From Halalkalibacterium halodurans (lineage in GTDB: Bacteria; Bacillota; Bacilli; Bacillales; Bacillaceae_D), in contig NZ_SNUY01000015.1 of the NCBI RefSeq assembly GCF_004376175.1, positions 401 through 32,400 on the forward strand: a DNA stretch of 32,000 nucleotides, written 5' to 3'. Below the pieces are notes generated by a model. That model searched no databases, was not told the DNA's origin, and saw nothing but the letters and a program-made list of their open reading frames with translations. Below, in pieces: positions 15,065 through 31,934 of the stretch (positions are counted from its first letter, which is position 1; every line of letters starts with the position of its first letter). Made by a program: the position numbers and the translations under genes.

Positions 15065-15645
15065 TTACATCAGTAGTTGAAATGGCTGCTCTAGCATGGA
15101 TTTCACGTCTGTTAAAAAGGCCGCCGCCGGAGCTCCATCAATGACACGATGATCGAATGATAAACTAGCAGTCATCATCGGGCGAAGCTCAATCTGGCCG
15201 TCTATCCCTACCGGCTTTTCTTGAATTCTACCTACACCTAAAATCGCGGATTCCGGTTGATTGATAACTGGTGTAAAGACGTCAATTGCATACATTCCTA
15301 AATTGCTGATCGTAAACGTGCCACCGCTCATCATTTCTTGTGAAAGTCGATTGTCTCTAGCTGCCATAGCTACTGTTTTACACTCGTTTGTTAATTGGGC
15401 CAGTCCTTTTTTGTCTACATGCTTAACGACTGGGACGACCAATCCTCTTTCAACTGCTACGGCTAAACCGATATGCACGTCTTCATGGTAGACGATTTCA
15501 TCCTCAAAGAAAGAGGCATTAATGGCAGGGTGACTCATTAGCGCGTGAGCAACCGCCTTCATCACAATTTCTGTATAGGACAAACGGTAGCCTGTCTGTT
15601 GTTCAATCATCCCTAACAGTTGTGAACGGATTAACGCATGGCAAA
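15065..15645 (-). pseudogene. 5'-truncated dihydrolipoamide acyltransferase (E2); only most of the catalytic domain remains
   Basis: The fragment reads ...LIRSQLL...LSYTEIVMKAVAHAL...GGTFTISNLGMYAIDVFTPVINQPESAILGVG...SLSFDHRVIDGAPAAAFL. The lipoyl domain, E3-binding domain and start of the catalytic domain are absent. The ORF-track Met has no SD. Confidence 0.8.
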
Positions 15646-16107
15646 GAATTCTATGCCGCATTGCAACAAGAAAAACCGGAAGCTACAGACGTGATGTACG
15701 AAGGCTTCATGACGTATTTAGACGTACACACAGCCAATCAGCTCCTATTATTTATCGGGCTTTTTATCGCGTTGTTATTTTTCCTTGCCAATGGAAGTCT
15801 CATCTACTTTAAGCTGTTTACTGAATTAGAGGACGATCGGCAAATGTTTTTGATTTTAAGGAAAGTCGGCATGTCGGATCAAGAGATACGACGGGTTTTG
15901 ACGATACAATTGGCCATTCTCTTTTTTCTTCCTGTTCTTGTTGGGACGATCCATACGTTATTTGCCTTTAATAGCGCCCGTGCCGCTTTGTTTGCATCAA
16001 CCGTTTGGCAAACTGGTTCGTTTGCAATTGTCCTCTATTTCCTGTTCCAACTCATCTATTTTCTTCTCGCTCGGACGGTTTATACGAAAAAAGTACTTCG
16101 CTCGTAA
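15640..16107 (+). pseudogene. C-terminal fragment of a BceB/FtsX-type ABC transporter permease
   Basis: ...LLLFIGLFIALLFFLANGSLIYFKLFTELEDDRQMFLILRKVGMSDQEIRRVLTIQLAILFFLPVLVGTIHTLFAF... matches the last three TM helices of BceB-like permeases, which are about 640 aa when intact. There is no SD, ATPase gene or N-terminal part. Confidence 0.75.
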
Positions 16108-16183: not shown

Positions 16184-16224
16184 AAATCCCCCTTTCTCAA
16201 CAATTAATGTGTGGAAGGGGATTT
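16184..16224 (-). terminator. Terminator overlapping the end of the MocA-like gene
   Basis: In minus-strand RNA, AAAUCCCC pairs with GGGGAUUU (the loop contains the stop codon), followed by UUUUUUG. Confidence 0.6.
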
Positions 16225-16833
16225 CCTCTTCATTAAATCATTCACTTTCTTGTAATCTTCGCAAGTATCCACATCCACAAGGACCCCTTGATCATGAACA
16301 GGAATAAGCATCCTCTCCAATTCCTCCATGAGTGTCTTTCCTCCTTTATCTCCGTTCACAGCTGAGCAATCCAGAGCGTGAATATTTCCCCAGTATACCG
16401 GATGCCCCTCTTTCTTCTCATACATGGGGCGAACAATAAAGGGCTCTTCTTGAACACGAGTTATCCCTTCATTCAACACTATGTTAACTGTTTCCTTTTC
16501 GATCAATGGTTGATCGGCAAGAAACATCATCACGGCGTCCCCATACTGTCTTGCTTGCTCCATCGCTAGCTTAAACGATGTGCTCTGTCCTTGCTTATAT
16601 TGGTCATTGACCAGCCATTGGACTCGCTTATCTTCCACTTGAATCATCTTCATTACTATGTCCGCCTGATGACCGACGATGACAAAAATGTGTTGAAATG
16701 GGTGGTTGCTCACTTGATCAATTACGTACTTTAGCATGTATGTCCCTTGTATTTTGGCTAACTGTTTCATTTCGTTCATTCTCGTCGATGTGCCTGCAGC
16801 TAAAATGGCGGCGCTAACCGATGGTTTCATCAT
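16204..16833 (-). CDS. MobA/MocA-like nucleotidyltransferase (molybdenum cofactor cytidylyltransferase, PucB/YgfJ-like)
   Basis: VSAAILAAGTSTRMNEMKQLAKIQGTYMLKYVID is the NTP_transf_3 N-terminal motif. Length is 209 aa. Confidence 0.75.
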   Translation of the reverse strand: MMKPSVSAAILAAGTSTRMNEMKQLAKIQGTYMLKYVIDQVSNHPFQHIFVIVGHQADIVMKMIQVEDKRVQWLVNDQYKQGQSTSFKLAMEQARQYGDAVMMFLADQPLIEKETVNIVLNEGITRVQEEPFIVRPMYEKKEGHPVYWGNIHALDCSAVNGDKGGKTLMEELERMLIPVHDQGVLVDVDTCEDYKKVNDLMKRKSPSTH

Positions 16834-17112: not shown

Positions 17113-18450
17113 TTACGTTAACGCAGGCATTCGTTTTAGCAACCGTTCGATGGAACGATCCGACTCCCGAAGAACGATGGCTGGATCGATCGTTTTCATC
17201 ACCCGATTTTCCATGACGACGCGGCCATTAATAATCGTCGTCTCCACATCTGCTCGCGTCGCTGAATACACAATTCGTGAAATCGGGTCCACATCAAACG
17301 ACGGGTACGTATGAAAATGACGTAAATTCAAAATCGCAAGGTCTGCCTTTTTTCCTACCTCTAGGCTTCCGATCTCATGATCCATTCCGATGGCTCTTGC
17401 CCCGTTAATTGTCGCCATCTTAAAAACTGTACGAGCATCCATTGCCGTTGGACCGTGCACCGGCTTTTGAATTAATGCAGCGAGTCTCATTTCATTAAAC
17501 ATATCTAAATTGTTGTTGCACGGAGCGCCGTCCGCTCCTAAACTAACGGGGATTGCTTGATCTAACAAACTGGGAATGTCCGCGATTCCGGATGCAAGCT
17601 TTAAATTAGATCCTGGGCAATGGCTCACATGAATACCTCGTTCTTTGATGATCCGTTTTTCGTTTTCACTCAACCAAATGCAGTGTGCTAATATGAGCCG
17701 TTCGTTCGCTAAGCCAACATGATCAAGGTATTCGATGTTTCGCATCCCCGTCTCCTGTTGGACCATTTCAATTTCTCCGCGATTTTCAGAGGCATGGGTG
17801 TGAACATGGACTTGATAATGGGCTGAAAGCTTCCCCACCTCACGCAAAAGCTCCTCGGTACAAGAGACGACAAAGCGAGGTGAAAACGCATAACGTATTC
17901 GACCTCCATCAAAGCTGTGCCACTCTTCAAGCAGTTCGATACTTTTTTCAATCGACTGAGCCGTTTTCTCTTGCAATGGGAGCGGCACTTCCTCCCCTTT
18001 ATCCATCATCACCTTACCTGATATCGCGCGAATGCCGCTTGAAGCAATCGCTGCAAACGCAGAGTCTGTATGATGAACGGTTTCCATATCCACGATGGTC
18101 GTCGTTCCACTTTTGATGAGCTCACCGATACCTAGCAAGGCAGAATAATAGATTGACTCAGAATCATGCGCGGCTTCAAGCGGCCAAATTCGCTTTTTGA
18201 GCCAATCCATTAATTCTAAGTCGTCGCCCTTCCCGCGAAAAAGCGTCTGACATAGATGAATGTGCGTTTGAACAAATCCAGGAATCACCGTCCGTCCAGT
18301 GGCATCAATCACTTTCTCGACTCCCTCTTCGCTTAAGTCTTGACCGATCGCACAAATGAGCCCATCCTTAATCAATAGATCACCGTAAACAATGTCCTCC
18401 TTTGGATTCATGGTTACCATCTCTGCCTGTTTAATTAGGATCGTTGTCAT
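17113..18450 (-). CDS. COG0402 amidohydrolase (SsnA / guanine-deaminase / MtaD-like metal-dependent deaminase)
   Basis: PGFVQTHIHLCQT is the HxH metal site. HVHTHASEN, LAHCIWL and SLGADGAPCNNNLDMF are also present. The SD GAGGAGG lies 7 nt before ATG 18450. Confidence 0.85.
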   Translation of the reverse strand: MTTILIKQAEMVTMNPKEDIVYGDLLIKDGLICAIGQDLSEEGVEKVIDATGRTVIPGFVQTHIHLCQTLFRGKGDDLELMDWLKKRIWPLEAAHDSESIYYSALLGIGELIKSGTTTIVDMETVHHTDSAFAAIASSGIRAISGKVMMDKGEEVPLPLQEKTAQSIEKSIELLEEWHSFDGGRIRYAFSPRFVVSCTEELLREVGKLSAHYQVHVHTHASENRGEIEMVQQETGMRNIEYLDHVGLANERLILAHCIWLSENEKRIIKERGIHVSHCPGSNLKLASGIADIPSLLDQAIPVSLGADGAPCNNNLDMFNEMRLAALIQKPVHGPTAMDARTVFKMATINGARAIGMDHEIGSLEVGKKADLAILNLRHFHTYPSFDVDPISRIVYSATRADVETTIINGRVVMENRVMKTIDPAIVLRESDRSIERLLKRMPALT

Positions 18451-18511
18451 ATAAAAGCCTCCTCAAGCATTCGCTTTCTAAATAGCCAATACATCATGTT
18501 CCTCAACGCGC

Positions 18512-18563
18512 AAAAAACCTAGCCACAAAAGAACACATTAACTGCATTCTTTTCGTAGCTAGG
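18512..18563 (-). terminator. Riboswitch expression-platform terminator that shares its 5' arm with the aptamer
   Basis: CCUAGCUACGAAAAGAA (18563->18547) pairs with UUCUUUUGUGGCUAGG (18533->18518). That is 16 bp with one bulged G and one G.U pair, a 13-nt loop, and then U6 (18517->18512). Confidence 0.85.
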
Positions 18564-18617
18564 TATTTACGGTACCTGTAGAGACCCTCATCCCATATTG
18601 AGAGGATATACGAAGAG
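18549..18617 (-). promoter_or_regulatory. Purine riboswitch aptamer (G-box, RF00167 type), discriminator C
   Basis: The RNA reads CUCUUCGUA UAU CCUCUC AAUAUGG GAUGAGG GUCUCUAC AGGUA CCGUAAA UACCU AGC UACGAAAAG. It aligns almost position for position with the B. subtilis xpt aptamer (UAUAAUCGCGUGGAUAUGGCACGCAAGUUUCUACCGGGCACCGUAAAUGUCCGACUAUG). Confidence 0.9.
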
Positions 18618-18715
18618 TGTTGAGCTCGATTAAGTTACCGTTAGTATATGATGATTTTAGGCGAGAAACCATTCATTTGTAAGGTAACTTATCAGCATTC
18701 TTCAACCCGTTTCCG

Positions 18716-30493: not shown

Positions 30494-31934
30494 AGGGTTA
30501 CTCCTTGGTAGAATCTTAGTCAACCAAAACTAAATCACAAACAAAGGAGTAACCCCTCATGCAAAAGAATAACACAGTATATCCAAATTTAAAACAGATT
30601 GAGCAATTAGTTTGGAGGCAATTACAGGAAACCTTCTCAAAGGTCATGAAAACACTATTAGAGGACATGGACAAGCAGATTGCAGAAGAACGAGATAAAA
30701 AACGCTATCGACTCATTGATAAAAGAAAATATCATATAACTAGTCTCTTCGGAGAGATTGAATTAAATCGTAATTATTACCGTGACCGGGAGACAGGGGA
30801 ATATGTTTTTCTCCTTGATCGTTATTTAGAGTTTGAGGATGCAGGTTCTTTTAGCCCATTGATTGAGGAGGTAGCTATTGAATTAGCTGTTCAGGGACCT
30901 TCCTATCGAAAAGCAGCCAGTACGTTAGAAACCCTTTTAGGCTATCGGGTTATTAGTCATGAGGCAATCCGTCAACACTTATTACAAGTTTCGAGTATTC
31001 CAAAAAAGCGTGAGCATGTACATCAACCTGTATTATTTGTAGAGGTCGATGGTTTGTTTGTAAAACGTCAAGGTAAACGAAAAAAGGGAAAAGAAGAGAA
31101 AATAGCCGCAGTTCATCAAGGCTGGGAAGTCAATGGGAAACGAGTAAGACTGAAGAATAAACGCCATTTCGTACATGAAGGGAACCAGCCATTTTGGGAG
31201 GCGTTTGAGGACTTTCTCATCGAAAACTTTGAGTATGATCCAACCATTCATAAGTTGGTAATAAATGGAGATGGTGCAAATTGGATTACAACTTGTCGTG
31301 ACTATTTCAAAGATCGTGCATTCTTTTCGCTTGATCGTTTCCATGTGGCACGGGAGATTCGAAGTTTGTTCCGTCATCACCCACGTTATCGTCCAATTCG
31401 TAAGGCGCTTGCATCATATGATTATGAGAAATTGCTTACAGAGCTTAACAGTGCAGTCGGAACGCTAGAGGATGATGAGCAAGAGGAACGTCTAGAAGCA
31501 TTTATTCGCCAATTAGAGAAATATCCAGAAGCCTTGGGAGATTATCGTAACTGGCTTAAAGAACAGGGTATAGATACAACAGGAATGCGTCCGATGGGTA
31601 GTGCAGAAGGAACCATGAGTGTATTTGCCAAAAGACTTAAAAATGGCCGTAGTTGGGTGGATAAAGGTGTAAGTGCCATGTTCACTGGTTTGGTAGCTTA
31701 CTTGGATAAATTGACCTTAAAAACACTATTTGGCAGGATCGAAAAATGGACTGAAACACAGGTGGAAAAGAACCCACCAAGATACTATAAAGAAAAAGTT
31801 ACGAGCACAATTGGTGAAGCCACTAGAGACAATGTTCTATATCTAAAAGGAAAAGCTAACATACCAGTTTACAAAGCATTAAAAGAGTTGTCTGGCTTTT
31901 AAAAAAGGCAAAATTCTTACCAAGAGAGTATCCT
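30494..31934 (+). mobile_element. ISLre2-family insertion sequence (ends approximate)
   Basis: A single transposase ORF is flanked by imperfect terminal inverted repeats. The left repeat is AGGGTTACTCCTTGGTAGAAT (30494-30514). The right is ATTCTTACCAAGAGAGTATCCT (31913-31934), whose reverse complement is AGGATACTCTCTTGGTAAGAAT. About 19 positions match, with small indels. Confidence 0.7.
30559..31902 (+). CDS. ISLre2-family (UPF0236) transposase
   Basis: ERDKKRYRLIDKRKYHITSLFGEIELNRNYYRDRETGEYVFLLDRYLEF and ...INGDGANWI...LDRFHVAREI are characteristic of ISLre2/UPF0236 transposases. The SD AAAGGAG is present. Confidence 0.85.
   Translation: MQKNNTVYPNLKQIEQLVWRQLQETFSKVMKTLLEDMDKQIAEERDKKRYRLIDKRKYHITSLFGEIELNRNYYRDRETGEYVFLLDRYLEFEDAGSFSPLIEEVAIELAVQGPSYRKAASTLETLLGYRVISHEAIRQHLLQVSSIPKKREHVHQPVLFVEVDGLFVKRQGKRKKGKEEKIAAVHQGWEVNGKRVRLKNKRHFVHEGNQPFWEAFEDFLIENFEYDPTIHKLVINGDGANWITTCRDYFKDRAFFSLDRFHVAREIRSLFRHHPRYRPIRKALASYDYEKLLTELNSAVGTLEDDEQEERLEAFIRQLEKYPEALGDYRNWLKEQGIDTTGMRPMGSAEGTMSVFAKRLKNGRSWVDKGVSAMFTGLVAYLDKLTLKTLFGRIEKWTETQVEKNPPRYYKEKVTSTIGEATRDNVLYLKGKANIPVYKALKELSGF

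Follow-up and report, generated by a model that had tools for sequence, protein, structure and literature searches.

Purine riboswitches of the guanine-I type, such as the Bacillus subtilis xpt-pbuX element, fold into a three-way junction with AAUAUGG and CCGUAAA loops, an 8-nt J2/3, and the bases U22, U47, U51, and C74. They are OFF switches and control salvage, transport, or biosynthesis genes. In the adenine ON switch of B. subtilis pbuE (ydhL), the 5' arm of the terminator consists of the aptamer's own P3 3' strand, J3/1, and P1 3' strand. Several variant classes have also been described. The 8-oxoguanine (8-oxoG) class lacks U47 and always lies ahead of 8-oxoguanine deaminase (PMC10556655). 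In guanine-II, J2/3 is longer by one base and J3/1 by three or four (PMC12445698), and xanthine-II has U51G together with junction insertions (PMC9295807). Selectivity for 2'-deoxyguanosine (2'-dG) is obtained via a change at U51, and 2'-dG-III, which occurs with nucleoside hydrolase genes, differs from the guanine-I consensus in each of its three joining regions (PMC9295807, PMC12445698). Here we analyzed a 32-kb window (the whole stretch of DNA under study, from Halalkalibacterium halodurans contig NZ_SNUY01000015.1) in which a guanine-type aptamer precedes the gene for a 445-aa COG0402 amidohydrolase. Our analyses indicate that this aptamer, which is of the guanine-I type, is probably a transcriptional ON switch through which guanine would induce a non-canonical guanine deaminase.

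Purine (RF00167) was the only Rfam family with a match above threshold in the window, at 18633-18536 on the minus strand, the strand on which all elements of the switch lie. The match covers the full-length model (1-102) at 54.8 bits (E = 6.4e-07), where the gathering score is 37. The aptamer itself (18549..18617), as defined by RF00167, a family model, folding, and covariation, is a three-way junction of P1, P2, and P3. P1 pairs CUCUUCGUA (18617-18609) with UACGAAAAG (18557-18549) in six contiguous pairs, one C.A mismatch, and two further pairs. It leads through J1/2 (UAU, 18608-18606) into P2 (CCUCUC with GAUGAGG) and its loop L2 (AAUAUGG, 18599-18593). The 8-nt J2/3 (GUCUCUAC, 18585-18578) then connects to P3 (5 bp, AGGUA with UACCU), which carries L3 (CCGUAAA, 18572-18566), and J3/1 (AGC, 18560-18558) returns to P1. 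The bases for L2-L3 complementarity are present, GG in L2 and CC in L3. In the Rfam alignment, the pocket bases fall on their model positions, with U22 at U18608, U47 at U18584, U51 at U18580, and C74 at C18558. A sequence-only reading of this DNA had called the aptamer guanine-type and had taken C18558 as the equivalent of position 74. Both calls are upheld by the covariance search and the alignment, as well as by the relatives described below, and every sequence element was found where that reading had placed it. Its P1 was correctly located as well, although the pairing is interrupted by the mismatch.

The aptamer runs into an intrinsic terminator (18518..18563), a hairpin whose 20 bp are interrupted by one bulge (-25.1 kcal/mol) followed by a U6 tract (18512..18517). 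The hairpin was seen by folding; a simple terminator scanner did not flag 18563-18518. Its 5' arm (18563-18543, CCUAGCUACGAAAAGAAUGCA) is composed of the end of the P3 3' strand (three bases), the whole of J3/1, the whole P1 3' strand, and a few extra bases. Because the terminator arm reuses the 3' side of the aptamer, the two structures are mutually exclusive. This is the platform design of pbuE: the terminator overlaps the P1 3' strand and P3, a U-tract follows, and there is no separate anti-terminator, so that ligand binding would, judging from the folds, prevent termination. The window element differs from pbuE in having C74 instead of U74, which places it in the guanine class, and in preceding a catabolic enzyme gene, where pbuE encodes an efflux pump. 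It differs from the guanine-I switches in being wired ON instead of OFF and in controlling a deaminase gene. The sequence-only reading had recognized the ON wiring and the U6 tract, and both stand; the 16 bp it gave for the stem do not.

The leader has a minimum free energy (MFE) of -42 kcal/mol (z = -5.2), and none of 200 shuffles was equally stable. When the nascent aptamer segment was folded alone (the transcript up to the just-made P1), its MFE structure was the canonical three-way junction, at -13.5 kcal/mol. For the full leader, the values are -42.0 kcal/mol with the terminator and -20.0 kcal/mol with the aptamer pairs enforced, a gap of about 22. Together, these folds suggest that termination is the default outcome and that a ligand locking P1 and P3 would permit read-through. 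A putative Shine-Dalgarno sequence (GAGGAGG, 18458..18464), 7 nt ahead of the ATG, lies outside both folds and is left free by the switch, which means that regulation would act on transcription. The folding results thus support a transcriptional ON switch of the pbuE type, and the predicted direction in vivo is induction. A consensus scan also returned a weak candidate for a sigma-70-type promoter about 35 nt upstream of P1 (CTTACA, an 18-nt spacer, and TAAAAT; 18654..18683), with 9 of 12 consensus matches, no better than in shuffled sequences.

The same arrangement is conserved in relatives. Orthologs of the enzyme at 72-80% identity were taken from 80 Bacillales species representatives, with sampled genera including Paenibacillus, Niallia, Domibacillus, Halalkalibacter, Alkalihalobacillus, Metabacillus, and Amphibacillus. 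A covariance model built from the window and six relatives (R1) detected an aptamer directly upstream of the orthologous deaminase gene at about 74 of these 80 loci, with scores of 63-96 bits, and gave the window aptamer 80.5 bits. Standard pairs make up 93.8% of cells in the family alignment (A3). Compensatory double changes were found in 17 of the 20 pairs across 71 distinct relatives; none of 500 shuffles reached this level, and no slid register came close. C74 is invariant (74/74 relatives), and an 8-nt J2/3 with U47 and U51 is present in about 72 of the 74. All 74 loci have a terminator into which the P1 3' strand is drawn. An automatic test passed 73 of them, and the window, where the test failed owing to a spurious GUAAA/UUUUU outer helix in the MFE fold, was assigned by inspection. 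Compensatory changes within the terminator occur in L031, L073, L079, and L072; for example, the arms pair as CGAGAGA/UCUCUCG in L031 and as CGAGGAAAA/UUUUCCUCG in L073. The genes flanking the deaminase vary by genus and are unrelated to purines, which leaves only the riboswitch and the deaminase gene as the conserved unit.

Some members of the family deviate from the common form. L2 is 6 nt long (AAUUGG or AAUCGG) in most Paenibacillus and Niallia members, whereas both the window and the Rfam consensus carry the 7-nt AAUAUGG. The numbering in the 8-oxoG riboswitch's cryo-electron microscopy structure (U8 and U35 for U22 and U51; PMC12982123) implies an equally short L2 there. Degenerate-looking aptamers that retain a terminator-like hairpin lie ahead of the deaminase gene in Alkalihalobacillus deserti (L049:3863-3933, with J2/3 mostly deleted), Paenibacillus validus (L051:3838-3912), and Priestia iocasae (L042:3779-3842), and these may be decayed switches. 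In Metabacillus sp. Hm71 (L073) and a Bacillus metagenome-assembled genome (L024), the aptamer and terminator are unusually distant from the matched deaminase start (567 nt and 412 nt, respectively), which suggests inserted sequence, a small open reading frame (ORF), or a mis-set start.

We compared the window RNA with the other purine-riboswitch classes. The adenine class is ruled out by C18558, in place of U74, and xanthine-II by the retained U51 (U18580). Guanine-II is ruled out as well, since J2/3 has 8 nt, J3/1 reads AGC, and the insertions are absent. Guanine-II, which is known from phosphoribosyltransferase genes of Paenibacillus (PMC9295807, PMC12445698), resembles the window element in being a guanine-class ON switch and in having a G before the pairing C (G63-C64 there, G73-C74 here). 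The extra bases that are its own, in J2/3 and J3/1 (CCAGGC), through which it makes a C40-G62 pair along with stacked non-canonical pairs, are absent from the window, and the gene association differs. The 2'-dG classes were compared by description rather than feature by feature, and their published descriptions do not apply here.

The 8-oxoG class was considered on account of its ON wiring, deaminase gene, and Bacillales host. The riboswitch, found in Paenibacillaceae (PMC10556655, PMC12982123), shares with the window element the ON direction, the scaffold, a COG0402 deaminase, and a related Bacillales background. The two also have in common the C at position 48 (GCUCUAC vs GUCUCUAC) and the terminator-overlap design. 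The window RNA was nevertheless ruled out as a member: it has U47 and G73, whereas that class lacks U47 and has A73, and the enzyme is different. We scanned metagenome contigs for the same aptamer core with U47 deleted and obtained three matches, with J2/3 reading GCUCUAC, A73-C74, and an ON-type terminator. The protein behind these aptamers passes the 8-oxoguanine deaminase model (PRK08203 / NF006055) at 597 bits against a cutoff of 532, and it is only 32% identical to the window enzyme, which scores 295.9 with the same model. These differences in U47 and in the enzyme indicate that the 8-oxoG switch and the window switch are sibling, but distinct, sensor-enzyme pairs. The ligand, which the sequence-only reading had left open among the guanine variants, is thereby narrowed, as the window RNA has none of the features that define the 8-oxoG, guanine-II, xanthine-II, and adenine classes.

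What sets the family apart from guanine-I lies next to the pairing C. The Rfam consensus has a capital A at position 73, and in guanine-I this A73 stacks above the ligand beside U22-A52 (PMC12445698). The corresponding base is G in 71/74 family members, and in the window it is G18559. In 82.6% of cells, the base that precedes G73 is paired (as U-A, U-G, C-G, or A-U) with the one that directly follows C53, and with this closing pair of P3, J3/1 in most relatives is simply G73-C74, of guanine-I length. Compared with guanine-I, the closing pair is weak in the family (U-A or U.G) and missing in the window itself. The window is an outlier here, as its P3 5' strand is 1-2 nt shorter than that of every relative. 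The shortening leaves A18560 (position 72) without a partner and explains why J3/1 reads AGC and P3 appears one pair shorter. The sequence-only reading had noted both peculiarities, correctly for the window sequence, but had not singled out G73, the actual signature of the family. In every member, G73 lies inside the terminator stem, usually 1-4 pairs from the stem base at the U-tract. As a G-C pair near the stem base aids termination, the expression platform alone could select for G73. The equivalent base is G in guanine-II and xanthine-II too, and the affinity of guanine-II for guanine is nanomolar (PMC12445698). The guanine-II affinity and the role in the terminator stem temper the claim that G73 changes the ligand.

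The regulated gene (17113..18450, minus strand) encodes a protein that is 99% identical to a Halalkalibacterium halodurans protein. Its assignment to the COG0402-type amidohydrolases, already made from the sequence alone, is supported by NCBIfam NF005557 and Pfam Amidohydro_1. The metal and catalytic set HxH...Q, H, E, H, D is complete (H63, H65, Q68, H219, E222, H256, and D307), and guanine deaminases use the Gln/Glu/His/Asp set for catalysis (PMC13054789). We compared the substrate site with that of 4F0R, a deaminase of 5'-methylthioadenosine (MTA) and S-adenosylhomocysteine (SAH). After HxH, the enzyme has Gln (H63-I-H65-L-C-Q68, that is HIHLCQ or HxHxxQ) where 4F0R has Met (HGHSAM). The substrate loop reads S-P-R192-F193-V-V-S-C vs APHAPYT, and the catalytic motif reads H-A-S-E222-N-R-G-E-I-E (HxSENxxE) vs HIHETADEV. 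In a PDB search with the 79-residue segment that contains the SPRF and HASEN motifs, guanine deaminases came first, reversing the order obtained with the full-length protein. The top matches were the enzymes of yeast (6OH9), Clostridium (2I9U), human (2UZ9), and E. coli (6OHB), each of which has TPRF..SC and H.SEN..EI; 8-oxoguanine deaminase (APCSPFSVS, HLAENVNDI) and MTA/SAH deaminase ranked lower.

R192-F193 and Q68 align with the TPRF and HxHxxQ motifs of these four structures. The enzyme shares HxHxxQ, [ST]PRF..SC, H-x-SEN-x-x-E, and the metal Asp with human GDA, E. coli GuaD, and the yeast enzyme, and the active-site motifs are kept in 74-78 of 78 orthologs. In human GDA, the guanine ring is hydrogen-bonded by Arg213 and Gln87 (PMC3360617). 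The RNA (C74) and the protein (Gln and Arg-Phe) each independently indicate guanine. From its active-site residues, we consider the enzyme most likely to be a non-canonical guanine deaminase that converts guanine to xanthine. Hitchcock et al. (JACS, 2013) reportedly found guanine deamination in a subgroup related to Tm0936, with Moth1224 as its example.

We propose the following mechanism. During transcription, the aptamer (18617-18549) would fold first. Bound guanine would pair with C74 and be enclosed by U22, U47, and U51, holding P1 and P3 together. The strand CCUAGCUACGAAAAG would then be unavailable, no terminator would form, and RNA polymerase would enter the deaminase gene. Hypoxanthine or xanthine may have the same effect at higher concentration. 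Without ligand, CCUAGCUACGAAAAG would pair with 18537-18518, forming the 20-bp hairpin ahead of U6, and transcription would stop. In this way, guanine, as the substrate of the enzyme, would induce its own removal, and the ON switch would complement the guanine OFF switches of purine salvage, uptake, and synthesis genes.

The genes near the deaminase are informative in one relative only. Within the window, the deaminase gene is followed by a gene for a MocA/YgfJ-like molybdenum-cofactor cytidylyltransferase (16204..16833, minus strand), which scores 136.8 bits with TIGR03310, below the cutoff of 186.45. No terminator was recognized in the 280-nt gap between the two genes, so the MocA-like gene may be co-transcribed with the deaminase gene under riboswitch control. 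The window contains no xanthine dehydrogenase genes. In Natribacillus halophilus (L078), the deaminase gene has no upstream aptamer, and a second aptamer of the G73 type lies right after it (L078:5579-5655, plus strand). The genes behind this aptamer (L078:5665-7702) encode a PucE/XdhC-like iron-sulfur subunit, a MocA cytidylyltransferase, and an XdhB-like FAD subunit. It is atypical for xanthine dehydrogenase genes to be preceded by a guanine-I-like aptamer. The L078 and MocA context supports a catabolic role.

Several findings weigh against a guanine-induced guanine deaminase. The best NCBIfam model for the window enzyme is NF005557, an equivalog for 5'-deoxyadenosine deaminase (740.7 bits vs a cutoff of 522), the name that RefSeq also gives the enzyme, and the guanine deaminase models stay below their cutoffs (TIGR02967, 264 vs 375.4; NF006679, 237.8 vs 351). 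In a full-length PDB search, the nearest structures are MTA/SAH-type deaminases (~239 bits). On the RNA side, G replaces the consensus A at position 73, P3 of the window has only 5 bp with an unpaired A beside the junction, and the guanine-II work showed that specificity can shift when the surroundings of a pocket change and the pocket itself does not (PMC12445698). The protein scores would be explained if the annotation were correct and the enzyme deaminated 5'-deoxyadenosine, MTA, or SAH, with the riboswitch coupling the salvage of by-products of radical S-adenosylmethionine and methionine metabolism to purine status. The N-terminal segment is also nearest to MTA/SAH-type deaminases in the PDB, and all orthologs bear adenosine-type names in RefSeq and UniRef. 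We nevertheless regard this explanation as very improbable. The enzyme has the guanine deaminase pattern, Gln and Arg-Phe, where 4F0R has Met and His, and the corresponding residues are those that contact the guanine ring in human GDA. One submitter has already named an ortholog (P0038) guanine deaminase, and the guanine-specific induction of an adenosine-analogue deaminase would have no obvious logic. The sub-cutoff scores and the full-length affinity to the MTA/SAH type, which separate the enzyme from the known amidohydrolase guanine deaminases, would instead make it a separate guanine deaminase lineage, if it is a guanine deaminase at all. The short P3 and the unpaired A72 could alternatively mean that the aptamer of this strain has decayed or is non-regulatory and does not fold, giving constitutive termination or read-through. 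Its P3 5' strand is indeed shorter than in any relative, its family-model score lies under those of most relatives (up to 96.4 bits), and clearly degenerate copies exist elsewhere (L049, L051, and L042). Decay is scarcely credible here, as the Rfam threshold is exceeded by 18 bits, the pocket and loop-loop bases are all intact, the aptamer segment has the canonical junction as its MFE structure, and the terminator overlap is intact.

The identity of the ligand leaves more room for other explanations. The G73 family could be a variant for a modified guanine (8-oxoguanine, methylated guanine, or 2'-deoxyguanosine/guanosine), with the deaminase acting on the same compound. The loss of the conserved A73 is in line with this, as are the shift of guanine-II specificity by peripheral junction changes (PMC12445698), the several rare guanine-I look-alikes beside purine-degradation genes that sense other ligands (PMC9295807, PMC10556655), and an enzyme that the NCBIfam cutoffs do not make a canonical guanine deaminase. 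Yet all four ligand-contacting bases are of the guanine-I type, and the marks of the published variants (U47 deletion, U51G/U51C, and junction insertions) are absent. The substrate-site motifs fit guanine deaminases and not the APCSPFSVS of 8-oxoG deaminase, and true U47-deleted aptamers accompany a different enzyme. The closing G-C pair that it forms in the terminator stem of every member is, moreover, a sufficient alternative explanation of G73, and a modified guanine is in our view decidedly unlikely. A broad oxopurine sensor, induced by hypoxanthine and/or xanthine as much as by guanine and serving a purine-catabolic regulon, is quite unlikely too. Guanine-I aptamers do bind hypoxanthine and xanthine as well, with a Kd for xanthine of 3.0 uM compared with 0.008 uM for guanine (PMC12445698). 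A same-type aptamer precedes the genes of xanthine dehydrogenase, whose substrates are hypoxanthine and xanthine, in N. halophilus, and the MocA-like gene follows the window deaminase gene with no terminator between them. In the 74 species, however, the directly controlled gene is a deaminase, and hypoxanthine and xanthine have no removable amino group; xanthine would be the product of the reaction, and the aptamer linked to xanthine dehydrogenase is a single example. We also considered that the G73 ON-wired aptamers form a distinct, as yet unnamed subclass of the guanine scaffold, with selectivity tuned by A73G and the weak P3 base, that marks a separate lineage of guanine (or guanine-derivative) deaminases, widespread in Bacillales and systematically misnamed 5'-deoxyadenosine deaminase or MTA/SAH deaminase. 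Such tuning might, for example, reject the product xanthine, as guanine-II does, or favor a modified guanine. We think it unlikely that this subclass exists.

The reading that we prefer, a guanine-I-type aptamer acting as an ON switch for a guanine deaminase, makes the element a well-behaved and well-populated member of a known riboswitch class, and in that respect it is fairly ordinary. The points of wider interest are the A73G signature and the probable misannotation of the enzyme. Our literature searches, outside of which most subscription papers lie, found no earlier description of this riboswitch-deaminase pair. If this reading is true, at least 74 species use guanine-type aptamers as ON switches for a catabolic enzyme, mirroring the textbook guanine OFF switches, and one ligand would shut purine supply and open purine disposal. 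The riboswitch would also be independent evidence of function and, taken with the active-site residues, would argue that a family named adenosine-analogue deaminase in RefSeq and UniRef is a guanine deaminase, so that many genome annotations and Bacillales metabolic models would need correcting. The published 8-oxoG riboswitch would become the sibling of a commoner guanine-ON/deaminase pair and would illustrate simply how a new sensor-enzyme pair could arise from the deletion of one base together with a paralogous enzyme. Current understanding would not be overturned by any of these consequences.

Elsewhere in the window, a 2-oxoacid dehydrogenase E2 ORF (15065-15661, minus strand) consists of the catalytic domain only (198 aa, no lipoyl domain) and stands beside an intact gene for dihydrolipoyl dehydrogenase. 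The gap extending to 16204 contains only a fragment-like membrane-protein ORF (15622-16107, plus strand). Both ORFs look like gene remnants. Two overlapping ORFs at 120-2830 on the minus strand (120-1526 and 1496-2830) correspond to the C-terminal and N-terminal halves of a mannosylglycerate-hydrolase-like protein, probably as a result of a frameshifted gene or a sequencing error. A gene for an ISLre2-family transposase (30559-31902, plus strand) lies near the end of the window.

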